Shown one piece after another: positions 36,440 to 64,000 of a DNA stretch of 64,000 nt. The notes beneath the pieces were generated by a model, which ran no database searches, was not told the DNA's origin, and worked only from the letters and a program-made list of their open reading frames with translations. The stretch lies in assembly GCA_051294905.1 (NCBI GenBank), contig CM119371.1:35712001-35776000 (forward strand), read 5' to 3'. Each line of letters starts with the position of its first letter. Position 1 is the first letter of the stretch. The stretch is from Botryllus schlosseri (Eukaryota). The translations under genes and the position numbers were made by a program.

Positions 36440-36887
36440 CAGGGTTGTAATGACTCGAGTCATTGCGCATGACTCGAAGCAAGTCATTGACGCGAAATTC
36501 AGACGGCGAAGACCGACATTTCATTGTAATTTCGAAGCAAACACACTATTGGGATTTCGTTTGTTGGTACTGGTGCTTGAAAATGCGACCAGAAACTGCT
36601 AAAAGTGAGGAAAATTGATATATTATAAATGCGAACCATTCAATATCTCCAAACAGAGTTAAAAAGTGGGTTTAGGAAGACTTTAACTGGAAACTGAGCA
36701 GTCAACACAATGACTTGGACTCGGGCTCGAGTCATAATACCATAACTCGGACTCGATCCTCTGTTTTCTGACTTGGACTCGGACTTGACTTGGTGGGAAT
36801 TGAAAATGACTCGACTTGACTCGAGTCAAAAATATAAAAGTGAGATTGACTTGTGACTCGGAGCCTTGTGACTTGGTTACAACCCTG
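36440..36887. mobile_element. hAT MITE of the GACTCGAGTC-rich family, 448 bp
   Basis: TIR CAGGGTTGTAA at both ends; exact 8-bp TSD CTGGCCAG at 36432-36439 and 36888-36895; subterminal GACTCGAGTC/GACTTG repeats. Confidence 0.9.
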
Positions 36888-39800
36888 CTGGCCAGGCGTG
36901 ATGACCCAGGCTTCCCAAATTTCAAGTTTATGGGTCCAATCCAGAAAAAGAAACATTATGGACGCGGTGGTACAGACTTCGAGACGAGTTGGTTTGGAAC
37001 TTCGAGTCTCGAGATGAAACTAATCATGTATCTGTGCCAACACATGAATAGTTCTTTTTCTTGGCAGAATCTGCCGAGTATTACATACATTTACAATTTG
37101 TGTAGTTAATGTTATGACGTTGCGTTACAGCAATCAGCATTTGTTCGCTATTGTTCTAAAGGTGTTTCATAGTGATACCTAAGACATGCGTTATATATAA
37201 TTCACATTAAACCAATATCAAAAAAATCATGGTGCTAAGGGAAGGTGTGAACGTTCTGTTTGCTTTCGTGTTCATAGTGCAAATATTGATGTTTCAGAAG
37301 TTCGTGTTTGCAAACGAACATTGAAAGGTCTTACATCTACACTCTGAAGATTTCGTTGAAATAGCGTTATTTTATAGGGATACTAGAATCTTTGTTCGAA
37401 ATTCATAGCATTATAACTACCTATCCCCCTCTGCATGAGTGTGACTGCGAGAAAAGAACGTGGTAACGAAACTAAAACAAAACTTAGCGTATAATCGACA
37501 ATTTTATAGATTCCTGTGTATTTTGCTTGAGATACCACGTTATTATACGGTAGTGAATATTATATTGACACGACAACGTCACCGTCGAGTGCGTGTCCAC
37601 ATAAACGGGGTAAAATAATATAATCAGCTTTTATACTCGCCTGGTGACATGGTAACTGGTTAGTCATTCATGATGAAACTACAAATTATATTGTGATCCC
37701 GTGCTGCGCAAATTGATCTTGGGCTCTTAAATCATATGAGGATCCCAACAGCACTGGGTGCAAATAAGGCAGAGGTCTCAAACTCAAATGTGCTATCGGG
37801 TCAGTTTTCCCGTTTTGACGCCGCCGCGGGCCGCAGCACTTATATGGGTATTCTATGTCTTTCCAAGTAGGCCTTATTTGGTGGGAATGAATTGTCCTGT
37901 TGAAAGTGAGCCGATCCATCAGACTGACAGTAAACACACATCGTCAAAACGTGATTTACTCTTGTATCAATTTAGGCCTGGCACGAAGAAAATCATCACA
38001 TTTATAACTATTTGAATAGAATTGTTGTTGTACTTGATATAGTATATATTAATTATAAGATATAGACACCATATGGGCGGACAAATGTATGTTGCCATCA
38101 TAAAAGCTGTCGGGGTATAATTTCGCAGCTACTATGAATATTTTGAATTTAACAGATTGATAATAGAGACTAACCTGATATCAAAACATTTTTAGGTTGA
38201 GCATTGTAATTCCAATCCAGGATTCGGGTGTACTTCTGATATGTAGGCTATTAATCTCATGGGCAAATATCTTCAAATACAGGAGCAGAAAAAAATACAA
38301 ATATAATATAAATATATTAATGAATGTGTCTTAGTGATTGAAATGTCGGAACGCTGAACGGCCCATTGTTGTTACATCGTCGGAGCGTACCACCATCGGT
38401 AATCGGTACCTTGAAGTGGCCTTGATAACTATGGTTTAGCGACCCGAGATGTAACTAACAGATTGCCCATGGTTGCCATAAATATACTTGCTTAGTTAGT
38501 GATATACCAAGCTGCGACTTTCTGATCTATTACTATTCCCCTGATACGCGATTAGTTTGTTGCGTCCATGGTTCTATTAAATTCACGGCATTCCGAGTCC
38601 CTCTGAGTCAACTCAAGTCATTTTCATTTTGCCATCGAGTTAGCCCGAGTCTCAGTAATTCTAGGAAAGGTCGCGTCCAATTCCAACTCACAAATTTCAG
38701 TCACGAATCGTCTAAGGGTCAGGTCTTGTCATCATGAATTTGAAATGGAGCGAAATAGTGGATCTTCCCCTGCATGGTAGCGTTTGCAATAGATGTGATA
38801 GTGAAGTTTGATGAATAGTTTCAGGCTTTCGGAGCAATTTAAGAGGGAATTTTGACTTATAACCTGAAAAGATGTATGTGACACTTATATATTGTCAAAT
38901 TATTAAAAATCTAAAATGTTGTCGCGGGCCGCACACAATGCTCTGGCGGGCCGCGTGTTTGAGACCTCTGAAATAAGGGATCTTTGCGGATCGATAACTA
39001 ACTCTAGATCTGAAGAAAATTTCAACCAACAAGACATCAGATTATATTAGAGAACATTTCGATGCAGTAACATCGTCAGAATTGAAGTCTTTCCAAGGAC
39101 ACCAAGCCTATAATCTGAAGGCTAAAATGTGAATTGTGTTGCAATTAGCATTACGATATCAGATGTTGGCGTTCACACGAACCGAACCTTTTCGTATTTT
39201 CCATCATCCCTATTGGTTCTATTTCCTAGGACTATAATTTGCATCAATTCTCAGTGATACTGCAGTCGCTGGAAGGCGCGACTAATCTTCTTCGACGAGA
39301 CTTCATTTCCTACGAAACTTCACACTGGAACGAAAGTTCAGGCGGTCAAAAATGTATTCTACCGATTGTAACTTCCGGAAATGTCATGTGCAATATTTCT
39401 TTTCTCCATGCGTAATGGATATTATATTAGGACTCGATAATATGGTATACGTGTATGTTGTCAAAACGACGATTGAAGAGGCGCGACAGCAATCGCGCTC
39501 ATTCGGAAATTCGCTTTACGAATGGAACTGTTCCCGAATATTATGACATGCCAACAAGTTGACGATTTTCCGTCTTGCGACGAAGCCACGTATCGCCGAA
39601 CTGGAATATAATTACGGTTACGATCGGTTACGATAAGCGCCCATCAATAAGACCGACCAGGACGATTCCCGTCGGAGGTTTATCTGGGCTCCTCTTCCCC
39701 CGCCGTTGCCGTTCTTACGGCGAAAAAAAAGCCTAGTAAAAGACCCGACGAAAGAAAGCACTCACGAGGAATGGACAAACTAATAGAAATGGCCGCGGCT

Positions 39801-40799
39801 TCAAAAGAGATCAACAACGAAAAGAACTGTGACATCGGGCACTCCAGCCCGAGGTGAATGTTAGAGTAAAGGATCGCTACTGATGCGTGTCATTCGATAT
39901 CCTCCTATCCGTTCATGACATCGCATTGTCTTACTGCATTGTACGTTGTGTGTGACTTGTTCAGATAAAAAAATGACCCAACGATATTATGTTAATACCG
40001 TGGTGGCACCTACATTGCGCGACTATTATGAAACAGGGCTCGTCTCATGACAAATAAATGCTTTTGTCCTAAACAACATTCTAAAACTACCTCGAAGTGT
40101 GTATCTATACTACTGTAGATAGGGTAGGCCTACTCATAATTATCGGAGAAGCCGGGCATCAACGAGTCCAGGGGTGGTAAAAGTACTCATCATCAACATA
40201 TACTCGAGTCGAAGTAGAAGTGACATTCAACTTTCCACTCGGGAACAAGCATAAGTAGTCATTTGCAAGACGTGTCAACAGTACTCCGAGTGCAAGCAGG
40301 AAACTGAACGTCCGCAGAGAACTCGTGTGAGAAATTTCAAATAGTTGATCTGGCGAAGGGTCACCTACTTCAAGAAATTATTCGGGAGTTTCACCTTTCG
40401 AAATTTCAATACGTATCTAATCAACCAAATCAAAGCGACCAACGTCACTACAAATAGATGCAATTTCCGACGATCAATGAAGCTAGTGATACAGGGTCTG
40501 TACGTCGCTCGGTTGATATTACTGGGACACAATTTCGATGGCAATACTTTTGTTCTGGTCAACACACAGCTGCATCATGTTAGAGCGGGTCTGTCGGTAG
40601 TAGAGTTGAAAAGATTACCTCTTTCCTGTCTACCCCACAGCAATTCTAGTAAGCATTTTCTAAATGGCCGTTACCTCGTCCGATTTCATAGGATTTTCGA
40701 CTTGTAAACATTGTCCTCTTGATATGGTAATTTTAACTGCAAGTATACATAAAACCTGCCGAGTACCCCGAAAAGGACGAGTACTTGGTTGTTGATCAC

Positions 40800-42817
40800 C
40801 AGGGTTGTAACCAAGTCACATGGTTCCGAGTCACGAGTCAATCATACTTTTGTGGTTTTGACTCGAGTCGAGTCGAGTCATTTTCAATTCATCACAGACT
40901 CGAGTCCGAGTCCAAGTCACCGTTTAAAGGGTCAAGTCCGAGTCATGGTGTTATGACTCGAGTCGAGTCCAAGTCACAGTATTGAAGTCATGTTCAACTT
41001 ATGTTTTCAATCCTGCTTGGGTAATATCGAATTCCTTGTTTGCGAAACATGCTCATTTTGTCCCTATCAGAGTCTTGGCACGTGTTTATTCAGGCAGATA
41101 ACGGTCAGGTCCTGGCCTCATTTACCGATGCTAAAGATAATTTTACTAATCTTAGAACTTAAAATCGAATATCTCTCTTGTTAGTCTGATACATCACCAA
41201 TACAAGTATTCAGTTTTTATTATGAACACATCGACGATAGTTCACGAATAGCTGATAGAGAACCAACAAATTCACGTCAAGATACTAGTTGATAGAGAAT
41301 CAATAGATGCATGTTTATGTAGAGGTATTTACAACAGGCCAGCATGCTGTAAAAGCGTGCATGCAACTATGTGCATTGTGCAGTGACAACAGAACAGATA
41401 CCCTTTGATTATACTAAAGGTTTTCCCAATTGCATTACAGACTACATCGCAGTTACAGCATTGGAGAAATAACTGTACAATGGCGCTGTTCAAAAACATC
41501 CTTTCAAATTTTCCGGCCACTTCTGAAAATTGCCAGATCGCCCAAAAAATCAAATTTGGCTCAATTCCAACCAGTAGAAAGCAATGCTATGAAAGAAAAT
41601 TTTAGACTAATTACAAATAGAAATTTTCGAATTTTTTACCGGCTATCTCATGATATTGTTACATTGTGTAAAAATATGATTCATAGCAAATTTGACTCAA
41701 TTCCAACTAGAAAAAGTGAAGTTATTAGAGTAGAATGTTTTGGATATGAAAAAATAGTCGGCTTACTACTATGTAATTATATTATATGAAAGAATTTCTC
41801 ACTAAAATACTCCATTTATTTTCAAATCCAAAACATTCTCCTCTCACATCATTGATTCCACCTTTTTCAAATTAAGCCAGATCCAGTGTTCCCTTTATGC
41901 AACATAACAATTCTATCAAGTAACCACCCAGTAAAATAAAAAAGAAGTTATTTTAGAACAGCCACATTGTACAAACATCACACAACATTAGCCATTCATT
42001 ATTACTCACGTGCACAATGCACATACCTAACAAAACGTCAAATGGACGAGGGGCATTGTGTGTTTTCACAGACAGCAGATCAGATCAATGAGTTACACCT
42101 CAAAAATACTAATGTGGAAAGGAGATCCTCATATATGTTAAAGCGACATGGCCGTAGAATGAATCCACATCTACTGAATACACGCTCCACTAGTGCACTC
42201 GATGCAGGAATTGACAAGCATTTTTGAACCACACTGAAGAGCATTTAATACTCATTCTTTCTAGTCGCCCAAAAATGCAAAGAATCATCGCCTTCAAATC
42301 TACACATGAGCTCATCAGTCTCTTCACCATCTGAGTCATTTCATTGGCTCTAATTGAACTTTGATCCAATTGTTTGCTTGTATAATTGAAAAGTCTTGAG
42401 TACTTTAATTGCGGAGGATCTATTACCTCTTCATCACAGGATGATTTTGTACAATGCATTGCTACTATGTATCATTTTCTGTTGGTTTTACGGCGGCATA
42501 TCTGATATCAGACAAGTGAAACGAAAGCAGTGGTGACAAATAGCGATGTCGGCAGAATTCGTCGGATGCGTTGATCTAGCCATTATGATTCGCAAATTTC
42601 TTCATCTTCAAGTCATATAAAATAAGCCGAGTCAATGACTTGGGTCGAGTCATGCGTAATGACTCGAGTACAAGTCGAGTCAATCCAAATATTGACTCGA
42701 GTCGAGTCGAGTCATTTTCCCATTTCAAGAAAATGACTCGAGTCAAGTCGAGTCATAAAAAAATCGTGACTCGAGTCTGACTCGAGTCGAGTCATGACTC
42801 AAGTCATTACAACCCTG
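40800..42817 (-). mobile_element. Internally deleted hAT element, 2018 bp, same family as 36440-36887 in opposite orientation
   Basis: TIR CAGGGTTGTAA; exact TSD TTGATCAC at 40792-40799 and 42818-42825; GACTCGAGTC arrays at both ends; retains a transposase fragment. Confidence 0.9.
42120..42230 (-). pseudogene. hAT transposase C-terminal dimerisation-domain remnant
   Basis: Minus-strand translation QKCLSIPASSALVERVFSRCGFILRPCR matches the hAT LSIPATSAxxERxFS motif. Confidence 0.75.
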
Positions 42818-42922
42818 TTGATCACCTCTGCTAACGACTACAATCTTCGCGTCTTGATAGACACTTCCCGGTCAGATATTTATTGACAATCACGAACGAT
42901 AACAAAAATTCACCATACGTAA

Positions 42923-43734
42923 CTAATGAATAACGTCCCTCTGCCGAAGTCCGCTTCGCAAGCTCTCCAGGCATCGCTGCCGGCACGAATCGTCCTCAAA
43001 ATCAGTCGCTCTTTCGTACTCGTCGATGGCGAACTTCCTGTATGTCTCCGAAGAGAGATGTAGACCCTTCGAGCGACACGCGAGGCTCAGCGTGAAGAAG
43101 ATATCCCCCGCTGTGCTGTTCGGTCTGTAGTTCGGGCTGTTTACGAGATGCATTAATTCCCTCACCGCTTCTCTGCCGCACCTAATGGCTCTTCCGAAAC
43201 AATCAGTTTTGTGGTGCAAGAGAGCGACGAAGCCTAAACATCTGGCGACTGCAATAGTTCTCCTGTCGGTATCCACGCATTCCACCTCCTCCAGTTGAAT
43301 CGTAATCTGAATCATCCAAGTAATGACAAGTTTGGAAACTATATGACGCGATTGCCCGCCGGCTTCCACCATCTCCAACGCTCCACAGAACATCTTCGCA
43401 ACTACGATGTAATATAGCGCTACGTTATCCTCCAGTTTTTCAGAGCTGTATGCATAATATACCGATCTGTATATAATCAACGACGCGAGATGGCGCCCAC
43501 GGTTGGACACTTCGTCACCCCACTCCAGCAGTTGATGCTGGGGTGTTGAGCAACGTTGCACCCCATTATCAAAACACGTCATTGTTTTCTCCGCCTCGGC
43601 AACCTTCCCAAGATAGTGCTCGCACTCGGCCATGAGGAGCAACGTGTCCAGATTGTCGCTTGAGTGTTCCCGCTGCGGTAGATACGATAGAGCTTCGTCA
43701 TAGCGATTATTTCTTATCAGAGCGTGCGCCAGTC
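42923..43734 (-). CDS. Terminal exon of a host TPR-like helical-repeat protein gene
   Basis: 812-nt open exon after acceptor TTTGTTTTACAG; reads LAHALIRNNRYDEALSYL...LLLMAECEHYLGKVAEAEK (TPR-like); ends in TAG; AATAAA on the minus strand at 42879-42884. Confidence 0.7.
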
Positions 43735-44296
43735 CTGTAAAACAAACGATGCAATCTCAGAAGATCGCCAGCGATTTCAGGCATTTAATACGAGGGCGTT
43801 AATGTCTATAGATATAGCGAAATCTTACAGTCAAAATATCAGTATACACTGATAACAGTTGTATTTCACAGATTTCCGCCATATCGTAGGGTGCGAATCA
43901 GTCGAACGGTATTCAACGGTAGAAAATTTGACTTTAAAAACTATCCTAATGGGTTGAAACGAGTTAAATACAACAACCGCAATGGCAGGACTCATTATAA
44001 TTCTTCAAGTCAAGAAATTACAAGCTAAAAAGAAGTATTTGATTCGGCATGATTTCGCTACGAACTGCTAATTAACTTCATTCTGCCACGTCTACGTAAA
44101 TCCCAAATACTCAGTGGTTAAGTCCGCGCTTGTAGATTATCTCCATGGTACAAAATCGTCATTAAAGTATAATACAGTTAAGATCTTCAATCTTACATAG
44201 AAACAAGACTTGGCTTCCGCGGACGTCAAGATGTCATGAAAAGCGCGAAGTCATATGCCCAAATACATAGCTTGAGTCGTGCAACAGACACCTCAC

Positions 44297-52305: not shown

Positions 52306-53123
52306 AACGCAATAGCACGCTTTCGAAATTGCAGTACAGCACTAGACGGTGTACTCCGAAAAGGAATTTTTTCACCCTTATCATTCAACAAAGATATTTT
52401 TATACGTTCCAATCTATTTATATTTACAGGGAAAAAGAAAGGCTTTATGTAGTATTTGGAAAACGCCTTCTTATCTCCCTCGACTTTCACCACTCGCAAT
52501 AGGCGCTGTAATGTACCATTGGATTCTTGCGGTTCAATAATATCGCAATGAACGTATACAAAGTCAATCGACGGTAAGGGTGTTATATCGAAATTGAAAT
52601 GTATTTTTTTCTTTGAGAAAGAATATGCGGATAGCGCTGCTGTATTTGGTAACACGAAAGTCGCGAGAGTGTAGCCATCTGGAATTTCTATATTCTTCAA
52701 CGTTGCTGTATAATCGTTCTCTGCAGTCACGATATTGCATTGCGTATCCACTTCTGGATAAAAGATATCTGTGATGTCTTCGTGTGGAATTGACACAGTT
52801 AGGGTATTGCTCTCAGGAAAACATTTTACTGCTACATCGGGGTTGATACTTTCTATGGTTTTTAACATGGCGTAGAGCGAGTCATATTGTCCAATTTTCA
52901 GGCGGAATCGTCTAAAGCTTTGTTCGATACCCATAATTTGGAATCCGAAGGAAACTTGTGAATCGATGCGTTTTTCAAAATCTCTTGGAAAACTGATCTC
53001 CGTCAGAGCGACTTCATTTCTCTCTACATTTCTTGCCGTCTGCATTTCGTTGACATATTCTGCGGTTGTATTGCCAGGAAACATGTCCATAGAAGCATTG
53101 GAAAATAACGTCACATAACTCAT
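52302..53123 (-). CDS. mCP: Minor capsid protein (penton) copy 1, 273 aa
   Basis: YVTLFSNASMDMFPGNT...EVALTEISFP; VYVHCDIIEPQ..NG...RLLRVV...FFPV...IKISLLNDKG. Confidence 0.9.
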   Translation of the reverse strand: MSYVTLFSNASMDMFPGNTTAEYVNEMQTARNVERNEVALTEISFPRDFEKRIDSQVSFGFQIMGIEQSFRRFRLKIGQYDSLYAMLKTIESINPDVAVKCFPESNTLTVSIPHEDITDIFYPEVDTQCNIVTAENDYTATLKNIEIPDGYTLATFVLPNTAALSAYSFSKKKIHFNFDITPLPSIDFVYVHCDIIEPQESNGTLQRLLRVVKVEGDKKAFSKYYIKPFFFPVNINRLERIKISLLNDKGEKIPFRSTPSSAVLQFRKRAIAL

Positions 53124-53332
53124 AGTTTAGGTATTTTTGGAGCTGGTAACATATAACCCACACACGACGATAATAACGATACCCAAAGCTCCTTGTTTTC
53201 TTGAACGATTGTTAAATTGTAGAGTGAAAATATCACTATGATCAATATAACCAGGACTTGAGCGATGAATTGATAAAAGTTACGGTTTGACGATATCTTT
53301 TTGATCGACCCAGGAATTGAATTCTGGTCCAT
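53120..53332 (-). CDS. Small two-helix membrane protein typical of Polintons, 70 aa
   Basis: IAQVLVILIIVIFSLYNLT...LWVSLLSSCVGYMLPAP; ATGA overlap with penton copy 1. Confidence 0.8.
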   Translation of the reverse strand: MDQNSIPGSIKKISSNRNFYQFIAQVLVILIIVIFSLYNLTIVQENKELWVSLLSSCVGYMLPAPKIPKL

Positions 53333-54293
53333 ATCCTAGCCATTTCACTAAATACTGACGGTGTTTGCCGCGTTGACGTCTCTTTATAATCTTTTCAATA
53401 CGCCACTCTGTAGGTTCGGTCACCACCTGTAGTTCTTCTCTGTAAAACCTCCCGTCGATGACGTCATGATTATAGTCACGCAAGCGATACATCGGAGGGT
53501 CACCAGCCATTGCGTCGATGATATAAAATATCTCAGTTGTCCAATTGGGTCTACTGCTCTTTTCAAAAAGCCCGCGAATTTTCGAAATGCGTACGGCTGT
53601 TCCTTTCGTTAGTGTGGGAAGTGTAGCTTGTCGAAACCCGTACATTTTTTGCCAAATAGCTTCTTGATTGTGTGAATTGACTTGACTAGGAGCCATACCT
53701 AACGACGTATGTTTGGTGTGATTATAGGAATATACGAAATCCTGTAGCACGTCGATGTATTTACTGGTGTTATTCTTTGTGAAATAGCGGTACAAGATTG
53801 CCTTGAAAGTCCTAATACAGCGCTCGGCGAGAGACGACTTCAATTCGCTTTTTGTGTAAAAGTAACGAACTTTATTTTTCTTGAGAAAGTTTTGAAAAGC
53901 TCGATTGGTATATTCTGTACCTCTATCAGTCTGCAACACTAAAGGCAGCCTCTCATTGAACACTTGTCGGAAAGCAGAAATCATACTGCGACCAGTTTTA
54001 TCTTTAATTGGAATCAACCACACAAACTTTGAAAACGTATCAATAACCAAAGCCAGATATCTAAATCCACGATTGTATTTAGAAATAGACTGCACATCAA
54101 TCAAATCGCTTTGAAACTGACTATCAATTCCAGAGACCACCACCTTCTCGCGAGTAAATTTTTTTCGTATAGGAAAATGCAGGGTATAACTTTGTTCTGA
54201 TTTCAACCATTCTTTGTCTTTCTGTAAATAAGCTCCTCTATAGGAGTTTGGTTTGCGGGGATCGAAATAGTCTCTCGCTAGCGTCATGTCCAT
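53280..54293 (-). CDS. INT: Retroviral-like DDE integrase with C-terminal chromodomain, 337 aa
   Basis: FQSDLID, QTDRGTEY, LAERCIRT (D-D-E); chromodomain WRIEKIIKRR...YLVKWLGYGPEFNSWV. Confidence 0.97.
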   Translation of the reverse strand: MDMTLARDYFDPRKPNSYRGAYLQKDKEWLKSEQSYTLHFPIRKKFTREKVVVSGIDSQFQSDLIDVQSISKYNRGFRYLALVIDTFSKFVWLIPIKDKTGRSMISAFRQVFNERLPLVLQTDRGTEYTNRAFQNFLKKNKVRYFYTKSELKSSLAERCIRTFKAILYRYFTKNNTSKYIDVLQDFVYSYNHTKHTSLGMAPSQVNSHNQEAIWQKMYGFRQATLPTLTKGTAVRISKIRGLFEKSSRPNWTTEIFYIIDAMAGDPPMYRLRDYNHDVIDGRFYREELQVVTEPTEWRIEKIIKRRQRGKHRQYLVKWLGYGPEFNSWVDQKDIVKP

Positions 54294-54745
54294 AACTTTC
54301 CTGTGTAGCGTTGATTCGGCTTTCGTTTGCGCGGACCGTCAATGCTTTGCCAATTAACTGGAGGTTTATTGGCTTTCTTCTTTTTAACTTTTTTCTTTGA
54401 AGTTTTAGGTGTATGGGGTGGAGTTACCGCTTCGTAATTGCTCCAAATCTCGGGTGTTGCGGGTGGAGGTGTCGCGTCAAATGTGTTATTAATAGCGGGC
54501 GCCGCTCCGGGCGGATGCGACGCGGCAATTGTTTCATCGGTAGCGGGCGCTGCGGGTGCGCGGGACGACGACTTGATCAATTTCTTATTTGCACGTAGAT
54601 TTCTCAATAGTCTAATGCCGTGTTGAAATAGTGCTAATTTTTCGGTGCGTGTCAAATCAGAGTCCCTGATGCTTGCGATATGTTCATTGAATTTCTTTTC
54701 GTAGGCGTCTTTTGATTGTAAAGGCGGGAAGTACAATTCACGCAT
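54284..54745 (-). CDS. Basic Pro/Ala/Lys-rich protein, 153 aa (putative core protein)
   Basis: Overlaps both neighbours (10 nt with integrase, 8 nt with the spliced upstream gene); KKKVKKKK and PRKRKP basic tracts. Confidence 0.75.
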   Translation of the reverse strand: MRELYFPPLQSKDAYEKKFNEHIASIRDSDLTRTEKLALFQHGIRLLRNLRANKKLIKSSSRAPAAPATDETIAASHPPGAAPAINNTFDATPPPATPEIWSNYEAVTPPHTPKTSKKKVKKKKANKPPVNWQSIDGPRKRKPNQRYTGKLWT

Positions 54746-55142
54746 GTCTAGTCAATCCACCTAACAGACTTCCAATAATCGGAATTGCAGCACTTAAGAT
54801 CGCTATAAATCATTAAAGTTAGATCATGAATCGAATCGAATCACATATATATTCACCGGATAAAAAGCCACCCTTTTGAAATACTTTTTGCTTCTGTTTT
54901 TGAGATTTACAGCACAGCACTTTGCGAATGTTAGTTTTATGCTTCTTCAGTCGTGCCTTACTCGTACTTGAAATAGCTATATTACCCGAGACAAGATTAC
55001 GAAGACACTCACACACACAGGTAGTAAAAGCTTTGTGAGTTAATAACTCGTTACGCTCCTTCTTTTTAGCACTCTTTAACAGCTTCAACTTGATAAGATG
55101 ATTATTTAAAGTTTTTTTCAAAACACCGCGTGACCTCGCCAT
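54738..55142 (-). CDS. pX-like basic core protein, two exons (54857-55142 and 54738-54802), 116 aa
   Basis: Lys-rich body with CVCECLRNLVSGN; splicing gives QKGG-FLSAILSAAIPIIGSLLGGLTRHA; unspliced form stops at 54819 (107 aa). Confidence 0.82.
54803..54856 (-). other. Spliceosomal intron, 54 nt
   Basis: Donor GTGAAT, branch point CTAAC, acceptor TTTATAG; contains the in-frame stop; removal restores an amphipathic C-terminus. Confidence 0.8.
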
Positions 55143-55176
55143 TGCGAATGATAGTGAATGTTCGAGTACAGCGCTA

Positions 55177-55182
55177 TTTATT
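55177..55182 (-). terminator. Poly(A) signal AATAAA overlapping the ATPase stop
   Basis: Minus strand GAA TAA A. Confidence 0.6.
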
Positions 55183-55798
55183 CCGAATACACGGTCATAC
55201 GTTCGCTTGGAAAAATGTTGCTGCGAAGTCGATACTGTTCGGGTGTTTCCTGCGTCAAATCGACCATGATATAACTATAAGGCTTACGAGTTGCTCTCTT
55301 GTAAGCTTCCGTGAGAAAATTTGGTTTATCTGGAAACATTTGACGTGAAAGATATCGAATCTGGGCAGAATCACGAGGATTTTTCATGATGACAATATAG
55401 TTGCTAGACAGCGTAATGTCACGGAAGCCTGCTCCTCGGTGAAATAGATTTTGACAGAGAAACACCACTGAGAGCGACATGTGATGACTGTATCTGGTGA
55501 ACAGTTCACGCACTTGACTTGCTTGCGTCATCATGTCATCTAGCACAATTAACGTATGTTCACTATTAGCTCTCTGTAAATCTTTCAACTTGTCTAGACC
55601 CTTGTAAAATTGCACTCCTTTCATCTTATCATACAACGGTTGATAGTTATTATATAACCAGATGATCTTTCTCGGTCGAGGTACGATGAGCTTGTCGGCA
55701 TTTTGTATGATTCTATAGGCGAAAACTGTTTTTCCACTGGACGATGCTCCACTAATTATCATACGAAGAGGCGAGTATAAAACACGTGCACGGTTCAT
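55178..55798 (-). CDS. ATP: FtsK/HerA (A32-like) genome packaging ATPase, about 206 aa
   Basis: Walker A GASSSGKT, Walker B LIVLDDMM, RYSHHMSLSVVFLCQNLF; probable start 55798, just after the PolB stop. Confidence 0.95.
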   Translation of the reverse strand: MNRARVLYSPLRMIISGASSSGKTVFAYRIIQNADKLIVPRPRKIIWLYNNYQPLYDKMKGVQFYKGLDKLKDLQRANSEHTLIVLDDMMTQASQVRELFTRYSHHMSLSVVFLCQNLFHRGAGFRDITLSSNYIVIMKNPRDSAQIRYLSRQMFPDKPNFLTEAYKRATRKPYSYIMVDLTQETPEQYRLRSNIFPSERMTVYSE

Positions 55799-55804
55799 TT
55801 TATT
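55799..55804 (-). terminator. Poly(A) signal AATAAA overlapping the PolB stop
   Basis: Minus strand TAA TAAA ATG. Confidence 0.55.
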
Positions 55805-58800
55805 ACAATGAAAGCGGTACAGTATGTATGCCATCCGGCAAAACAACTCTTTTATAGTAACCATACGACAAAGCAGAACGATATTGCTTATAAGTAAAAA
55901 TATTACCATTGAAACAGCGAAACCCAGAATTAATCCCTCCGCAAGTGGAACGGTTTTGCAACACGCCTTCAAAATCCTTGAAGGTCTTAGAGGCGGATTT
56001 ACTCAAACCTTTGGATGAATATTTATCAGTCTCACCCTTGCAGTAATACGTTTTCGAGTTCAATCCAATAAACCCGTGACCCTCCCATTCTACTTTAAAC
56101 AGACCAGGAATTCGTTTAGCATAATTGTAAGCAGCGATACAGCACGGTTCGGTGGTTTTGAAAGCGATCGGATCACGCTCAAAGTCTGCTCGATGCAGCG
56201 CGCAAGCTCTCTGTATGAGCCATTCATCATGAACTTGAAAAAATTCTTTCCTCCGCGAAGGTTTAATCAGGGAGTAGATTGAATCAGCTGATAAACTCAA
56301 ATATTGGCTATCAGTATCTCCCTCCAAATAACTGAAGTCGCATTCCTCTAAATACTCATGTAAAAAGTCATACAGAAACGAAAGCATGCGCAATTTACTG
56401 GAGTTAAAGATGAATAGACCTACAATGATCGGTTGATCAACGTCAATTGAATCTGGTAACGAGCTAACCTCGATCAGATCTTCAGAAAGTTCATCGGCGT
56501 CAATAAAGTTTTTTTTCTGAATGTGTGATTTCAACTCATCACTTTTTACATAAGTATGGTTTCTGTACTTCATTGGGTTCTGTATAGTGGACCCGAACGC
56601 GGAATTTCCGCAGAGCTTGAAGGTCAAGGCCTCCATTTCACGTGCTGGGTCTTTAGGGGTTACATCACCCTTTCGCCTTTGCGTTACGACAGAATTTACA
56701 AACTTTTGAAATGGTCGTTTTGCTTCGTATTCCACGGCTTGATATATGCGTGAAATAATCATACCGTGATCCATGTACCAACCCAACAAATCACTTGTAA
56801 TTAGTTGTTTCTCAGTGAAATAACTAGAGCCCAAAAACTTCTTTGGAAATTTCACGTTGTTTTGACGGGCATATTCGCGCATATGTTCGCCGACATCGCA
56901 TAAATCCACCGAGATATGTTTACAAAATGGCGGAAATTCTGCATATTTTGCTTTTAATTCATCGGGGCAGTACGCATCGACTTCCAATGCACCAAAGAAC
57001 TGTTGATGAAATACGCGATCTAATAGTTGATTCGCAGTGAGATAATATTCTTTTGTTACATTTCTTTGTAGTGACGAAACAAACTGCGCAATGTCAGGGT
57101 TGAGTTTCATGCGATTCCATTCACATTCGCGTATTGATATTATCGTGTATCCCAACTCTTCGAGATAGGCAGTAATTTCTTCTGTTTTAATACGTCGCTC
57201 AATGTTTGCGTCGTCCTTATAGCAGCGATCGCAAAAATGAAAAAAACACCCATGATATTGGAATATCAATTGATATTCAAGCGAAAAGCCATCAACCGAA
57301 ATTTGACGCGAACCAAGTTTAGCTTGCTTGCCATTCCAGGCGTGTTGAATTGAAATACCGCGTTGATAACTTTCATAAGTAAGCCATTCGAGTTCTGCCA
57401 TCGCAGGGTAAATTGGCTTTCTGTGAAATTTTTGTTTGGTTTCGTCATACAACCACCTGATTGGAAATCCACACGGCATGCATTGATCGATGGATGCGAG
57501 GTAGAGCGAATTTGCGTCATATCCGATTATCTTTTTCACGTATTTCGCTGCGTCGCCGTACTGTATTTCACGAATTTTCGTTTCGTCTTTCATTGCAAAA
57601 CGTGTTGATATTTGTGACAAACCGCCAAATAGATTGCTCACTACAGTTTGATGGAGATCAGCATTCGCTTTACTGAACAGCGCGATGTCATAACATTCCG
57701 CAAACATGAGTCGATTGGCTATGCTTGGTAAGCTGATAGCAGATTTGAACATGTCGATACCCAACTTTTGATAAAAGGCAGCGTTATTACCTAACGCAAC
57801 CAGAAAGCCAATCACGTCACTTTCGTTATAAAAAGTTAGAAAGTCTCGCATGGTTTTCATTTGCAGACGATTCCACATATCTATGCATTCTTGGTATTGC
57901 GCCGCGGTGATATTAGTGCCTCGATGACTGCTATAGAACATTTCGTGTGAAGGCAATTGCGTGTCATTCAATTTATCAATACAAGTCATGTACTCGTATG
58001 GAAAATAAAATTTTTTGTCCACGCCATTTCCATAAATTTTCAAGTACGCATCCAAACTATAACCCGGTGACAGAAACAGCGAAATGTCAAGGAATTTCAA
58101 TCGGTTGGTACTGATGGTCAGATATGCGCTGTTTCGTTTCAAAACGAAAAATCCACTTTCTTCTTGCAGTATAGGAATCAAATATTTTTTACAAAGATTC
58201 AAGTCGTAACGAGCCGAGTTGAATCCAATCACAGGTATTTGATCCAACCAAATTTCGAAGTGACGATACAAGCGATCTAAATAGCGTGTTTTGCCTGGTT
58301 CAATTGCATTGCGATGCTCTATTAACATGCGAAAATCTTTCAATTCTTCTTCAAATAACTGGCGCATATGCGAAGATGCGATGTTTTGAATTTCATACAG
58401 TTTTGCCACCATATCGCTAATTAAAACGTTGGGATCACCGTTGGAAATGAGTGTATGCGTTTCATTCGTAACATTATCTGAGAGAGATACCGATACTGCA
58501 ACATGCTTATTAACAATTTCGACTTTCGGTGTGTCAGCTCGAAGATTTTCTTTTTCTAGTAAACTCTCAAAATCATAAGCGATTCTGAAGGGGTAATATC
58601 GTTTTTCAGGGCTAACCAAAATTCCTTGTTCGCCCATTCGCTCAAACACAGTCATCTTAGGGCGATAAATACCGAAACCGTGTCGCTGTTTTTGGGGACG
58701 CTCACAATCAATGCTTTTCATATGCTCTAGCAAATTATTTTTTCTAGTAAAGAAAAATTTACACTTGTCGCACATATAGGTAGACGTGTACAATGTCAGG

Positions 58801-59669
58801 TCCCGGATCAGGCAACAGTGATGATCTTGCATGTGAATAGGTATAGTTATTCCATTAGCATGAGAATTACGCAGCATGACTGTGCCTTGATTACGTTTTT
58901 CATAAAGCAGTATTTGAACTTGAAAACAATCCTCAACTTTTGATAAGTCTTCAAAAGCTACTCCGTTCTCAGTCGAGATATCGTAACGAGCTGTGAATTG
59001 CGCGGCCAATTGCCGAACATGTGTTTCATCTGGCGCTTTTTTCATACTATATGAAATGCATCGAAAAATACATAAAGAATCCTCATATGCTTTGCCTTTA
59101 CGATTACGCAGGAAAGTCATGATATATCTACATTTGCTTAATGCTTGCATCTCCGGGGAAATGGAAGTACTTCCACCGAGTAAAGCTCTATCCATCTCAT
59201 AAATGTAAATAGAAATATGCAACACATCAGCACAGTAGAATTTCGTATCTGGTCGCACTCGATTGGCATATTCAAAACCTGCCGTCAAATCGATCTCATT
59301 CGTGACGGAATCGAAATCTTCGCGCGATATGATAGTTTTAGGGACATTAAAAACCGCTTGAGAACTCTGAGGATGATAATAACTATATCTGGATGTGTCA
59401 CGGTTGAATAATAAGTACCCATACGCGAAATTCATCTTGAACTGACGGTATCTTCTGGGGTAAATGTCTGCAATACGCGCGTGAATTTCGAGCGGACCTC
59501 TTCCGACCATTCGAATGTTGATGATTTCTCGTAAGTTGTTTCTTGAAGTCCATGTCGAATCGATGATGGAATCGTAGTGTCTTTCAATCACCTCAATGCC
59601 GTCTTGTTCGAAACCCAGCGTTTCGTCGACCAGAAATCCACGATCTCCATATCGCCTGCGTCGCGCCAT
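55803..59669 (-). CDS. pPolB: Protein-primed family B DNA polymerase with N-terminal terminal-protein-like and vOTU-like regions, about 1288 aa
   Basis: Exonuclease YDFES and GFNSARYD; polymerase YDANSLY, KLCGNSAFG, GDTDS; DSLCIFRC...HHCCLI (vOTU-like); C2H2 finger CDKC...H; nuclease-like insert VDGF...FQYHGCFFH. Confidence 0.98.
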   Translation of the reverse strand: MARRRRYGDRGFLVDETLGFEQDGIEVIERHYDSIIDSTWTSRNNLREIINIRMVGRGPLEIHARIADIYPRRYRQFKMNFAYGYLLFNRDTSRYSYYHPQSSQAVFNVPKTIISREDFDSVTNEIDLTAGFEYANRVRPDTKFYCADVLHISIYIYEMDRALLGGSTSISPEMQALSKCRYIMTFLRNRKGKAYEDSLCIFRCISYSMKKAPDETHVRQLAAQFTARYDISTENGVAFEDLSKVEDCFQVQILLYEKRNQGTVMLRNSHANGITIPIHMQDHHCCLIRDLTLYTSTYMCDKCKFFFTRKNNLLEHMKSIDCERPQKQRHGFGIYRPKMTVFERMGEQGILVSPEKRYYPFRIAYDFESLLEKENLRADTPKVEIVNKHVAVSVSLSDNVTNETHTLISNGDPNVLISDMVAKLYEIQNIASSHMRQLFEEELKDFRMLIEHRNAIEPGKTRYLDRLYRHFEIWLDQIPVIGFNSARYDLNLCKKYLIPILQEESGFFVLKRNSAYLTISTNRLKFLDISLFLSPGYSLDAYLKIYGNGVDKKFYFPYEYMTCIDKLNDTQLPSHEMFYSSHRGTNITAAQYQECIDMWNRLQMKTMRDFLTFYNESDVIGFLVALGNNAAFYQKLGIDMFKSAISLPSIANRLMFAECYDIALFSKANADLHQTVVSNLFGGLSQISTRFAMKDETKIREIQYGDAAKYVKKIIGYDANSLYLASIDQCMPCGFPIRWLYDETKQKFHRKPIYPAMAELEWLTYESYQRGISIQHAWNGKQAKLGSRQISVDGFSLEYQLIFQYHGCFFHFCDRCYKDDANIERRIKTEEITAYLEELGYTIISIRECEWNRMKLNPDIAQFVSSLQRNVTKEYYLTANQLLDRVFHQQFFGALEVDAYCPDELKAKYAEFPPFCKHISVDLCDVGEHMREYARQNNVKFPKKFLGSSYFTEKQLITSDLLGWYMDHGMIISRIYQAVEYEAKRPFQKFVNSVVTQRRKGDVTPKDPAREMEALTFKLCGNSAFGSTIQNPMKYRNHTYVKSDELKSHIQKKNFIDADELSEDLIEVSSLPDSIDVDQPIIVGLFIFNSSKLRMLSFLYDFLHEYLEECDFSYLEGDTDSQYLSLSADSIYSLIKPSRRKEFFQVHDEWLIQRACALHRADFERDPIAFKTTEPCCIAAYNYAKRIPGLFKVEWEGHGFIGLNSKTYYCKGETDKYSSKGLSKSASKTFKDFEGVLQNRSTCGGINSGFRCFNGNIFTYKQYRSALSYGYYKRVVLPDGIHTVPLSL

Positions 59670-59715
59670 AGATACTAGTATCTGAAAAATATCAAGACAA
59701 TAGTCAGTACATATA

Positions 59716-60120
59716 TTAGAAATTGAATCCATATTTCAAGCGCAGTTTACATTTAATTACACCGTATAGAAACACAAACTTAATTTTTTCAAGACGCTGA
59801 ATCTCAACAATGCAAGCATTCGAGTCACTAGATAGTTTTTCAATGTCTTTCATGGTGTTTTTAACTATGTTTAGAAAATTTTTCGAGTAGTCTTGGTCAA
59901 ATACTTCCATCGAAACAAGTCGATTCCACATAGCTTCCATCTTCAAATCGTCGTCAACTAGACCTTCGATCAAAGACATAGTGTCTTGACGCGAGCGCTT
60001 TCGGCTTTCATTTTGACTCTGATATATCTTGTTCATGTCTTTTCTCGGAGCCTGCATCGTTACACTTTGATGAGGCGCGTTCATATCTAACAAGTCACTT
60101 ATGTCAATGAAGTTATCCAT
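59716..60120 (-). CDS. Hypothetical helical protein, 134 aa
   Basis: ATG preceded by a strong splice acceptor; basic RKRSR motif; no family recognised. Confidence 0.7.
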   Translation of the reverse strand: MDNFIDISDLLDMNAPHQSVTMQAPRKDMNKIYQSQNESRKRSRQDTMSLIEGLVDDDLKMEAMWNRLVSMEVFDQDYSKNFLNIVKNTMKDIEKLSSDSNACIVEIQRLEKIKFVFLYGVIKCKLRLKYGFNF

Positions 60121-60203
60121 ACTGAGCTGCGAACAAAAAAGATTGAATTAGCACTGTATCAACATGCATCAAAAATATTAGTACTAAATCAACATGCATC
60201 AAA

Positions 60204-60209
60204 TTTATT
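60204..60209 (-). terminator. Poly(A) signal AATAAA overlapping the stop of the helicase-like gene
   Basis: Minus strand TGT GAA TAA A; also lies inside a putative donor GTGAAT. Confidence 0.55.
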
Positions 60210-61446
60210 CACATTCTTCGTAAGTACGTTTGATATCACGAAATTTAGCATAGAAACTCATTGCATGCATATCAGTTTCTACTTCATTACCGTTATTGCG
60301 AGTTTTTACTGAAGTACGATTCAATAACGAATACAGAACAGTATCACGACCATGACTATTCAATGCTTCTACTGACGGATCGTAAAGTTTATTTCCAAAT
60401 TTTACGACAACAGTTTTTCCAGCAAATGATAGTGGGTACTTTTCAGTCATGATCTCAGAGCCATTTTTCACATCACAAAACATCCAGAAAGAGGCAGGCT
60501 TAATCAAGCCATAATCGCAGTTCACAGCTGTGCGTTGTACTGTCATAATAGTCTCTAGGAGAGCAGCATTATTCATGAAAATACTAGCGCAATTCGGAAA
60601 CATACAAATAGATTTGTCGGCATCGTAATATCTGAATGCATCCAACTTTTCCAAAGTACTCAATACATAGTTTGCTACATCACTAGTCAAAAACATATGA
60701 GTCAGCATTTCTTTACCAGAGTGACAATCACCCTCAAACCAAAAATTCGGGGCTATATCTCTGCGGCGAACATAACCTTCAAAGATAGAAACAACGAGCG
60801 CTGCCCTGAGGAAATTAAGACTACGCATTTGTCCGGCATACCAAATTTCGGTGATATTTTCTTCAAGCGCAGAATACAAAAACACAGCATTTTGAATCGT
60901 AGGTTGAGGACTTAACTTCTCGATCACTTTATTGAATTTTCGACTTCTCATATAATCACTTGCCAGAATTTCACTCGTACTGGATTCGCGCAACACTCGA
61001 ATAACAGAAATCACAGAGCGCCTACGAGCACTAACATTTGTTGAATCAGACGAGACACTTTGATCACTAGCTAACGATCTCATATTCGATATCATTGGCG
61101 AATCATCATCAGACAGGTCACTTAACATCGCTGTTTCTGTATCTTCTCGGGTGGACTGCTTGTTCGAAGGCGCTACACCAAAATGACCATTTTTCATGAT
61201 TTTGCGTATCTCTGCACGAGCCGCTTCCGTACGACGAATTTTGATTGGAGGCTCTTGACTATTCTCATCCGTACGTCGAATTTTAACAAAAGGTTGAGTG
61301 TTTTGCCAATCAAAACCTTCGCTGATTGATTTAGCTTCACTGCTATCATCACCGGTGATGTCAATCACGTCGACTTGAGTCGTACTACTTTCGTTATCTA
61401 CTGCGACTTGTTCCATCTCGTCATTTACGACTTGTTCAGTATTCAT
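60205..61446 (-). CDS. About 413-aa protein: acidic disordered N-terminus plus degenerate SF3-helicase-like domain
   Basis: FLRAALVVSIFEGYVRR...NFWFEGDCHSGKEML resembles E1/NS1 Walker A context; expected Walker B lacks acidic residues (ICMFPN); SIM-like VDVIDIT. First ATG at 61446. The ORF is certain, the function tentative. Confidence 0.6.
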   Translation of the reverse strand: MNTEQVVNDEMEQVAVDNESSTTQVDVIDITGDDSSEAKSISEGFDWQNTQPFVKIRRTDENSQEPPIKIRRTEAARAEIRKIMKNGHFGVAPSNKQSTREDTETAMLSDLSDDDSPMISNMRSLASDQSVSSDSTNVSARRRSVISVIRVLRESSTSEILASDYMRSRKFNKVIEKLSPQPTIQNAVFLYSALEENITEIWYAGQMRSLNFLRAALVVSIFEGYVRRRDIAPNFWFEGDCHSGKEMLTHMFLTSDVANYVLSTLEKLDAFRYYDADKSICMFPNCASIFMNNAALLETIMTVQRTAVNCDYGLIKPASFWMFCDVKNGSEIMTEKYPLSFAGKTVVVKFGNKLYDPSVEALNSHGRDTVLYSLLNRTSVKTRNNGNEVETDMHAMSFYAKFRDIKRTYEECE

Positions 61447-61739
61447 TCTCAATACTCAATAACTAAAGTACGTCGTATTCGAAATACTGAGCGTATCTAA
61501 ATCTATTCCCTAACGACGTCTGCGCGATACTCGACAATAACAAAACGCAGCTGTTCGAACGTAGTGGAACTTAGCATTACTAACTCTAAATGCGCCGTTA
61601 AAATCAATTCCCCTATGAGTTAGACAACAGTGCGTTACTCGTAGCGATTCAATCGTAATACTCTATAATATCAAAAACGCAAATGACTGCGATCTCTAAA
61701 TAGTAGTCGCATAGCTGAGGCTAAACAACGCGAATAAAT

Positions 61740-61822
61740 ACTGGGTTGGCCGAGTGGTTAAGGCGTTGGGTTTAAGTTCCAATGAGCAAGTGTTCACGTG
61801 GGTTCGAATCCCACACCTAGTA
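61740..61822 (+). tRNA. tRNA-Leu(TAA): tRNA-Leu(UAA)
   Basis: 83-nt type II cloverleaf; acceptor ACTGGGT/ACCTAGT; anticodon loop TTTAAGT; paired variable arm TGAGC/GTTCA; A73. Confidence 0.93.
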
Positions 61823-61867
61823 CTGTTTGCGATCACAATAAACGCGCATGCTTGCGCCTCTGAAACT

Positions 61868-62125
61868 AACGTTGACAGCTGCGGCTATGAAACTGCGGCA
61901 GTTGACAGTTGCGCAACGTTCGAGATAATTTAAGTTTAAAAAATAACAGCTGCGGCGTTGAATTTGAATCTGCGGCTGTTGCGAAACAGTTGCGCAACGT
62001 TCGAGATAATCATTTTAAATTTAAAAAATAACAGCTGCGGCGTGAACGTTGAATTTGAATCTGTGACAGTTGCGAAACAGCTGCGCAATGTGCGAGACAT
62101 TCAATCATTTTAAATTTTTAAAAAA
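61868..62125. repeat. Three imperfect tandem repeats (periods about 81 and 91 bp) with palindromic cores
   Basis: TTGCGCAA at 61909 and 61990, CTGCGCAA at 62081; each unit carries CGAGA, TTTAA..TTTAAAAAAT and CAGCTG motifs. Confidence 0.85.
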
Positions 62126-62145
62126 TCAGAGAAGACGCCGAGGTC

Positions 62146-62180
62146 TATAAAACCACAGTAGCTAGTGCATAATTTCAGTT
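62146..62180 (+). promoter_or_regulatory. TATA box plus initiator upstream of the BIR gene
   Basis: TATAAAA at 62146-62152 and TCAGTT at 62175-62180, about 31 bp apart; ATG at 62194. Confidence 0.65.
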
Positions 62181-62193
62181 CTATTCAAGAGAC

Positions 62194-62580
62194 ATGGAAA
62201 AGATCAAGCCGTGCGGAACGCATCAATCAATAAAGAATTCCGAGGGCGAAATACTATATGAACCTTGTGATTTATTAAATCAACCCGTCTTTCGTAAAAT
62301 GAATTTCGATAGACGCTTGCAATCATTCGAGTCTCATAAAGAGAATTTCAGAGTTAGTGCATTTGAACTCGCGACTTGTGGACTATTCCACTTAGGATTC
62401 AACAATCACGTCAAGTGCTACATTTGTGGTCAATTGTTTGATAACTTGACAAATTGTACAGATGTCTGGAGCGAGCATGCTAGACTCAATCCTTCCTGTC
62501 CTCTGATCATGAAATTAGCAAAGGATTCTAAGTTCTTTCGCAACGTGCTTATTCGTATACCGCATAGCAGTTTTCGTTGA
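62194..62580 (+). CDS. Single-BIR inhibitor-of-apoptosis-like protein, 128 aa, no RING
   Basis: RRLQSF...ELATCGLF...VKCYICG; exact C-X2-C-X16-H-X6-C zinc ligand spacing. Confidence 0.9.
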   Translation: MEKIKPCGTHQSIKNSEGEILYEPCDLLNQPVFRKMNFDRRLQSFESHKENFRVSAFELATCGLFHLGFNNHVKCYICGQLFDNLTNCTDVWSEHARLNPSCPLIMKLAKDSKFFRNVLIRIPHSSFR

Positions 62581-62589
62581 ATCTTTAAT

Positions 62590-63168
62590 GTGTGTATTTT
62601 TTGTTTAGATCGAATCATGTCTATAGCAATTAGAGCCGAGTCGCAACTCCCAGAAGGACCTCTTCGGAAAGACATTTACATTTTCAATAACATATCGAAG
62701 CTTCGAATCGAAACTGCAGACGATCAGCTGATTGATCCTCGACAAGTACGTGTGTTTCCAACGAATGGCGCAATTCAACGATTCAAAGCAAGTTTAACTC
62801 ATAATGGGAAGCTCGTTGCGTGTTACACTCGAGAAGGTATCGAATACTTTCAGCAAATCAATCTCGCTGATGAATATATATTATATTCTCCGTCGAACGT
62901 CGTCGATGACGTAGAAAATTCACCGCTGGGGTGGATTTTACAAGAAACATCGCGTTACATTGCGCCGAATGGTCAAATACAGCCTATGGATCGCGCTAAA
63001 GCGGGATTTCCAAATGGTTATGGTAACTTTGCTGGGTATTCGAATGGTGGGATGCCGAATGCCAATGCAAGTTTCCGGAATGCTGGCAATGCTACTGGAG
63101 CCTTTCCAAATAGCAATACGCAATACGGCAATCGCAGATGGATGCCAAACAATTCTCAGCAATTTTGA
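62590..63168 (+). CDS. Hypothetical protein, 183-192 aa, with Gly/Asn/Phe/Tyr-rich low-complexity tail
   Basis: Long ORF; alternative start 62617 after an acceptor-like TTTTTTGTTTAG; AATAAA at about 63226. Confidence 0.75.
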   Translation: MCIFCLDRIMSIAIRAESQLPEGPLRKDIYIFNNISKLRIETADDQLIDPRQVRVFPTNGAIQRFKASLTHNGKLVACYTREGIEYFQQINLADEYILYSPSNVVDDVENSPLGWILQETSRYIAPNGQIQPMDRAKAGFPNGYGNFAGYSNGGMPNANASFRNAGNATGAFPNSNTQYGNRRWMPNNSQQF

Positions 63169-63304
63169 ATTGTCTCGGAAGCGCGCTCAATGCGATATCA
63201 ATTGTTTTATTGCTATGTGAGTGGAAATAAAAGCTTCCTGTGATTATGATTGTTGTGTTCGATGATTTTCAGTGCTGATAGACTTATATCAAGATAGCAT
63301 ATGA

Positions 63305-63377
63305 GGTAATTTAATTGCTCAGCCCTGTAGAGCAGCTTTGTGTTTATAAGCAGGTCACTCAAGTTTAGTACTCTCCG
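63305..63377 (+). pseudogene. Decayed copy of the element's own tRNA-Ala gene
   Basis: Collinear blocks GCTCAGC, GTAGAGCAGCT, AAGCAG, GTCAC, TCAA, GTACTCTCC shared with 47770-47841; anticodon and B box destroyed. Confidence 0.6.
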
Positions 63378-63704
63378 TAGAGGTTATTGCACAATCTATC
63401 TCTAATATGCTGCAATACAGACAGGTTCAGACGTGTCTATTCACTTCCGTCGAGTGACTTTTATAACACATTTTACACAATCACATGAGCAGTTTATTAA
63501 TAACCAACAAGCACATTTACTAATCGTTCAGAACAAGGCGTAGAGCTTCTTTGAGATCTTGGCACACTTTCTTGATATCAGAATCCTTTTTTTGATTTGC
63601 AATGTAAAAGCAATAACAGTTTCGCATAGATGAGCATATGATTACGAATAAACCGATATTGAAGTCTTCTGAGAGCATATTCACTAGTCCGCGCAATTCT
63701 GCTC

Positions 63705-63989
63705 TTAGTACGTTATGTCTTTCAGAGCATTTGAATTGCTATTCGAAGGTATCTGACAGCTGTGAACTAATTCTTCAAGTTTGTTCATCGTAGCGTAACG
63801 ACCATTTTTACGAATCCATAACTGTATCATTTGATATCGTTGCTCAGTTAAGTTATAGCAATCCATGTATTGACATTCGGCAATTTCATTGTCAGATAGC
63901 TCAAGTTTTTCACGTGCAAACCTATACCAGTTCATCAGGTCAATTCGATCCATTATGACGTATATATCATTAGCAGTAATCTTTGACAT
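63705..63989 (-). CDS. Death-domain-only protein, about 94 aa (frame stays open to the window edge)
   Basis: WYRFAREKLELSDNEIAEC...LTEQRYQMIQLWIRKNGRYATMNKLEELV fits the FADD/RIP-type death-domain pattern. Confidence 0.85.
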   Translation of the reverse strand: MSKITANDIYVIMDRIDLMNWYRFAREKLELSDNEIAECQYMDCYNLTEQRYQMIQLWIRKNGRYATMNKLEELVHSCQIPSNSNSNALKDITY

Positions 63990-64000
63990 ATTCAATCTGC

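Follow-up and report, generated by a model that had tools for sequence, protein, structure and literature searches.

Results

An interrupted gene in a Polinton/Maverick element

The window, a 64,000-nt stretch of the Botryllus schlosseri genome (assembly GCA_051294905.1, contig CM119371.1, positions 35,712,001 to 35,776,000), contains a Polinton/Maverick element that runs on beyond its end (Table 1). The element has 243-bp terminal inverted repeats (97.5% identical) with AGTAGT ends and a GGTTTC target-site duplication, and it encodes an rve integrase (PF00665, E 2e-13) and an A32-type packaging ATPase (PF04665, E 8.5e-10). Terminal inverted repeats, a 6-bp target-site duplication and a set of integrase, ATPase, protease and capsid genes are likewise described for vertebrate Mavericks (Barreat and Katzourakis 2021, PMC8097293). 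The gene studied here, which is assigned below to the GasderminX family, lies in the order A32 ATPase, GasderminX gene, one small ORF, and rve-chromo integrase. ORFs of 1309 and 425 aa are conserved across the element families described below and gave no Pfam hit; from size and position, we presume them to encode the protein-primed PolB and the double-jelly-roll capsid protein, respectively. In family B, the cysteine protease is 74% identical. Another small basic ORF on the minus strand (51210-51578), which is 90% identical in family B, contains a QSGG and a QRGHG motif, after which comes an amphipathic-looking stretch. It is presumably a Cupiennin-type core gene, resembling the Cupiennin that is paired with GasderminX.

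Both ends of the element carry cell-death and ubiquitin cargo with Bcl-2, E2 ubiquitin-conjugating enzyme, BIR, and Death domains (46891-47409, 47911-48381, 62194-62580, 63705-63989). One family B copy contains an extra caspase-domain ORF (L029:7016-7756; PF00656, E 3e-13), placed between two ORFs that in the window copy are separated by 113 nt. In one family C copy, an additional segment of the penton-like, cupiennin-like, and capsid genes lies inverted close to the beginning of the retrieved sequence (L133:233-998). Beside the element, positions 36437-46118 hold nested inverted repeats rich in TGACTCGAGTC, which are probably other DNA transposons.

Table 1. Positions of the element, the interrupted gene and neighbouring features in the window
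Feature	Position	Strand	Remarks
Polinton/Maverick element	46643..64000, on to window-equivalent 64525		17.9 kb; terminal inverted repeats, target-site duplication, gene set
Cysteine protease (His/Asp/Cys), presumed maturation protease	49433..49885	minus	Weakly similar to pS273R of African swine fever virus (E 0.008)
Exon 1, GasderminX/pX-like gene	54857..55142	minus	95 codons + 1 nt; family assigned via P0124, a relative with contiguous tail
QKGG motif, predicted protease site	54867..54878	minus	Cut after GG; cleavage inferred
54-nt phase-1 GT-AG intron	54803..54856	minus	Splice signals and in-frame stops
Branch-point match CTAAC	54818..54822	minus	20 nt from intron 3' end
Exon 2	54738..54802	minus	Split codon, then ILSAAIPIIGSLLGGLTRHA-stop
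Downstream 153-aa ORF	54284..54745	minus	ATG inside exon 2

Splice signals and position of the intron

Read without splicing, the GasderminX ORF extends from 55142 to 54819 and ends in QKGGFLSGEYICDSIRFMI. The initial annotation had proposed that a 54-nt spliceosomal intron, reading GTGAAT...CTAAC...TTTATAG, interrupts the gene here; all of its coordinates matched, and the comparative evidence given below supports it. The A+T content is 74% in the intron as against 63% and 57% in the flanking exons, and the window copy has three in-frame stops inside it (TAA at 54821-54819, then TAA and TGA). Exon 1 encodes a very basic helical domain (25 K+R versus 3 D+E) with QKGGFLS at its C-terminal end. 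The donor is located three codons and 1 nt past GG, that is, 10 nt past the predicted cleavage site, so that GG-FLS belongs to exon 1.

A comparable donor-branch-acceptor pattern starting in the first 30 nt was found in 0.27% of random 120-nt windows of the element, and only three CTAAY-N9-16-YAG motifs are present on the gene strand of 48.4-62 kb. The splice-signal pattern at 54856-54803 is more than chance. Host chaperonin introns were ~55-74 nt long at six of the seven sites examined, with boundaries inferred by homology, and a size of 54 nt is therefore normal for the host. Several host chaperonin genes (L101-L103, L105) are intronless single ORFs and have intron-rich paralogs.

The TGA of exon 2 overlaps the ATG of the next ORF (54745) by 8 nt (ATGCGTGA), while the unspliced stop would leave a 73-nt gap before this ATG. 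Eight of the 11 other gene junctions of the element also overlap and three have gaps of 35-113 nt, which bears out the earlier remark that the spliced stop matches the packing elsewhere. The identical ATG-x-TGA overlap with the downstream ORF was found in families B and C.

Acceptor-like motifs, each consisting of a branch point, pyrimidines, and CAG, were also noticed on the minus strand of the window at 59681-59705 and 60127-60151, with equivalents at L028:5754-5775 and 6346-6366 and in L133 just before 4487. They lie 6-17 nt upstream of the likely true ATG of the polymerase (window 59669) in families A, B, and C, and before the ATG of a 134-aa ORF in families A and B. These motifs may be leader or trans-splice acceptors.

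Assignment of the gene to the GasderminX family

The model of P0124, a relative with a contiguous tail, is all helical (pLDDT 87.5) with a tail helix at residues 97-118. When it was compared with viral proteins, the single significant match was GasderminX of the Terrapene box turtle adintovirus (109 aa; E 5.6e-5, TM 0.67/0.73, 30% identity). By way of this modelled relative, the window gene is a member of the GasderminX (adenovirus pX-like) family. The Pfam family Adeno_PX (PF05829) matched 32 of 101 homologs at E<=0.1, weakly (best 1.5e-5, one exceeding the cut-off) and over the region of GG and the tail; it did not match exon 1 or exon 2 of the window gene when these were taken separately. 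The description of the product as pX-like thus holds through the GasderminX match of P0124 together with the Adeno_PX matches. Solved relatives were detected neither by sequence nor by Foldseek or VIA-align (best Z 5.5), and gasdermin was absent among the solved-structure matches listed; such negatives do not argue for a new fold.

G-G-F is near-invariant across the 101 homologs. P4 is Q in the window (QKGG) and mostly Q in the gene family, which departs from the adenoviral protease consensus (M/I/L)XGG-X (PMC7998265, section 14); the sister proteins P0124 and P0179 have LKGG and LRGG. The mean hydropathy separates the exon-2 peptide (1.29) from the tail that results from intron retention (0.56), whereas the hydrophobic moment does not (0.52 versus 0.56) and was rejected as a discriminator.

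GasderminX of Beta-class adintoviruses/eupolintoviruses is likewise small, basic, and helical, and its C-terminal region is pX-like (Starrett et al. 2021, PMC8502044), but the window gene carries the tail on a second exon. In the main text of that paper, 'splic' does not occur and 'intron' occurs only in a maturase label. Its membrane activity is a hypothesis from structure predictions there, and is called hypothetical in 10.1101/2024.03.25.586562. The precursor form of adenoviral core protein X (mu) is also a basic core protein with a GG site and a C-terminal region that is hydrophobic and conserved (PF05829; PMC7998265). The N-domain of the window gene differs from it in being a helical domain of ~95 aa, not a short protamine-like peptide. 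The C-terminus of adenovirus pX is linked to E2 protein levels, not to membrane lysis (PMC7998265).

The intron is shared by five families in the genome

A protein search of the genome (495 Mb, 219 contigs) gave 207 candidates, 150 of which were scored. The genome contains at least 150 copies of the gene in about seven Polinton families; by identity class, 72 copies belong to the intron-type group and 78 to the intronless group. There are 12 copies in family A, 14 in family B (53-64% identity, one 47%), and 46 at 46-49% identity in the C group, which has three subfamilies. The other 78 copies, at 28-36% identity, constitute families D and E.

The intron was examined in 57 copies from five families, namely all 26 of A and B and 31 of the 46 of the C group, and 56 of them were parsed by script. 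In each of the 57, the gene was interrupted at the identical codon and in the identical phase, even where protein identity was as low as 48%, and the intron position, a point raised when the intron was first proposed, is thus common to the five families. GT was present in 55 of the 56 parsed copies, TAG in all 56, and CTAAY in the last 25 nt in 55; the 57th copy (L004), which the script did not parse, contains the same intron. The donor GT is missing from L010 and CTAAY from L094, and 13 nt of the intron are duplicated in L026. In L004, the GG motif lacks its first G, and in L077, L092, and L098 the reading frame is shifted or runs on at the tail.

The intron is 54 nt long in 30 copies, 51 in 17, 52 in seven, and 53 and 67 in one each. 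Since these lengths include non-multiples of three, frame-breaking indels are tolerated inside the intron. Among family representatives, the interior of the intron was 41-59% identical and the first 13 codons of exon 2 were 62-90% identical. These 13 codons differed by 4-10 silent versus 0-3 replacement codons per family pair, and 11 of the 14 differences in exon 2 between A and B fell on codon position 3. Judged by sequence comparison, exon 2 is under purifying selection. Readthrough into the intron meets an in-frame stop inside it in all 56 parsed copies. The resulting retained tails are 3-12 residues long and have no common sequence past the first residues, which are imposed by the donor.

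Of the 14 fetched copies of families D and E, 13 have a contiguous tail, which reads GGMFM(S/T)L(I/L)SSILP(V/M)(V/I)TGLLGNLFK; the fourteenth is frameshifted. The other core genes of the B and C copies compared were aligned without coding introns, frameshifts aside. No coding intron besides that of the GasderminX gene was found in this comparison, which covered core genes of families A, B, and C.

Homologs carry the tail contiguously

A profile of 95 positions, ending at the GG region, detected 2526 proteins at E<=0.001. The comparison of tails covered 254 retrieved proteins. A hydrophobic tail follows GG contiguously in 233 of the 254, and exon 2 outscored the retained tail against 225 of these 233 homolog tails. 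One homolog, P0061, continues with GGFLSAILSAAIPVIGSLI and is near-equal to the two exons of the window gene end to end. At the DNA level, the tail comes directly after GG in 16 of 16 metagenome loci. The proposal that the intron hides a conserved hydrophobic tail is thus upheld by the D and E copies, the homologous proteins, and the metagenome loci, with which the separately translated exons were compared. Among the 21 homologs rejected by the tail filter are several with a variant GG motif and others that are truncated or frameshifted; some of the 21 may hide introns.

A homolog search with the single sequence detected P0001 only, which is 71% identical and ends in GGFLSGK. From this end, P0001 looks like another intron-bearing relative that was shortened by the gene caller. 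An N-domain tree built on 89 columns and 68 of the 229 rows, with a midpoint root, placed the six intron-type rows, consisting of the five families and P0001, in one clade with support of 99/95. This clade adjoins P0124 and P0179, and P0124 is placed next to it at 100/99. Both proteins have contiguous tails; they come from Logan contigs, which may be of RNA or DNA origin, and their contiguity is known at the protein level. Since the intron-bearing rows form one clade, they point to a single gain. One intron gain is the simplest reading of this short, midpoint-rooted alignment. A search of viral contigs detected relatives of neither the gene nor the capsid protein.

Sequencing runs that cover the site

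None of the listed sequencing runs that contain the sequence is on record as RNA, and two of them, X1 and X2, are only guessed to be RNA. X1 contains one unspliced 3-kb contig over the site (depth 44, no joint). The X2 contigs break close to the site, but they extend into the intron and match family variants, and those listed contain no joint. A spliced junction 54857/54802 was thus not seen in the contigs of these two runs, which are guessed to be RNA and in which contigs drop rare forms. X13 and X17, which are on record as RNA, have zero reads over the site. The unspliced contigs speak mildly against abundant spliced mRNA in the X1 and X2 samples; they may be DNA or precursor RNA.

Discussion

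The gene family, the pX-like tail, and the element class are already known. In our literature search, neither GasderminX nor an equivalent Polinton gene was reported to contain an intron, although such an annotation is possible in the Starrett supplement or in Repbase. A spliceosomal intron in a Polinton core gene is likewise not mentioned in the available parts of PMC11296320, PMC12220804, PMC11244446, 10.1101/2023.08.22.554363, 10.1101/2024.03.25.586562, and 10.1101/2025.02.07.637071. The initial annotation regarded Polinton genes as usually intronless. This agrees with intact vertebrate Mavericks, which are described as intronless (PMC8097293), but not with dinoflagellate eupolintoviruses bearing introners, in which spliceosomal-type introns likewise lie inside Polinton-like elements (Gozashti et al. 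2025, PMC12166617). The introners are young copies of intron-generating transposons (PMC12166617), whereas the intron in the window is a single old one with a diverged interior, fixed in five families.

With a probability of roughly 0.7, we consider the 54-nt stretch to be an ordinary intron, the removal of which would make the standard full-length precursor. It would be an intron of the host spliceosome that was likely gained once by a Polinton lineage and has been kept since. The gene would be transcribed by host Pol II and then spliced largely constitutively. Removal of the intron would produce a basic, predicted DNA-binding domain followed by the GG site and a hydrophobic helical tail, and translation of unspliced messages would end within the intron, without the tail. 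The precursor would be packaged and cut after GG by the protease of the element, releasing the tail, and the spliced stop would couple to the start of the next gene.

It is possible, but in our judgement unlikely, that retention of the intron is regulated. The retained mRNA would then give the basic domain without the tail, and the spliced mRNA would add the tail only when particles are built. A Polinton lineage would have a host intron at the boundary between the core DNA-binding domain and a pX-like, membrane-active tail, and its stage-dependent retention would yield either a tail-less core protein or a tail-bearing precursor. The intron, 10 nt past the predicted cleavage site, cleanly parts domain from tail, and the tail-less product would be close to that expected after protease cleavage, but no such switch exists in 233 of the 254 homologs. 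The in-frame stop in all 56 parsed copies would suit a switch, but in-frame stops are expected in any A+T-rich intron. Selection for in-frame stops in short introns is a general surveillance effect. Regulated retention is also in keeping with the lack of any other coding intron in the core genes compared across families A, B, and C, and with the finding of nothing but unspliced contigs in the two runs guessed to be RNA, but those contigs may derive from DNA or from precursor RNA, and rare forms are dropped from contigs. The retained tails, at 3-12 residues, are unconserved. With their early stop, such tails fit an ordinary intron better than a switch. The initial suggestion that retention switches off a membrane-active peptide until late infection found no support in any result; besides the unconserved retained tails, the branch point is strong and most homologs are intronless.

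It is rather improbable that the downstream 153-aa ORF receives its mRNA through a second use of the intron's 3' end, as a leader or trans-splice acceptor, a function that would be compatible with cis-splicing. The ATG of this ORF is 58 nt further on, a second use would explain the strongly conserved branch point, and acceptor-like motifs occur upstream of other starts in the element. Adomaviruses use acceptors before late ATGs (10.1101/341131). However, no loose end or joint at 54803 was present in the sequencing runs checked, and the downstream ATG overlaps the spliced stop as it does in intronless relatives, so that stop-start coupling is enough.

It is very improbable that the stretch is not an intron: although no spliced RNA was seen, stop-codon readthrough and frameshifting were rejected by the three in-frame stops of the window copy, lengths in all three frames, purifying selection on exon 2, and GT, CTAAY, and TAG being kept across families at 48% protein identity, and a gene-breaking or introner-like insertion was rejected by the lack of terminal repeats and flanking duplications (the longest word common with either exon is 5 nt).

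For an ordinary intron, the consequences are in part practical. ORF-based annotation shortens the gene and would call the tail lost, as is likely the case for P0001. As a marker, the junction would distinguish processed Polinton mRNA from DNA and unspliced precursor RNA among dozens of near-identical copies. If regulated retention were true, protease maturation would be joined by a second switch at the RNA level, and splicing would control a step of the life cycle in a class of elements that has been described as intronless.

That a presumed virion-core gene has kept an old intron implies a long history of transcription and splicing of these elements in the host nucleus, and continued selection on the hydrophobic tail. 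Particles are described as unseen so far in the Maverick group (PMC8097293). The presence of the intron in a presumed core gene would give indirect support for real particles.
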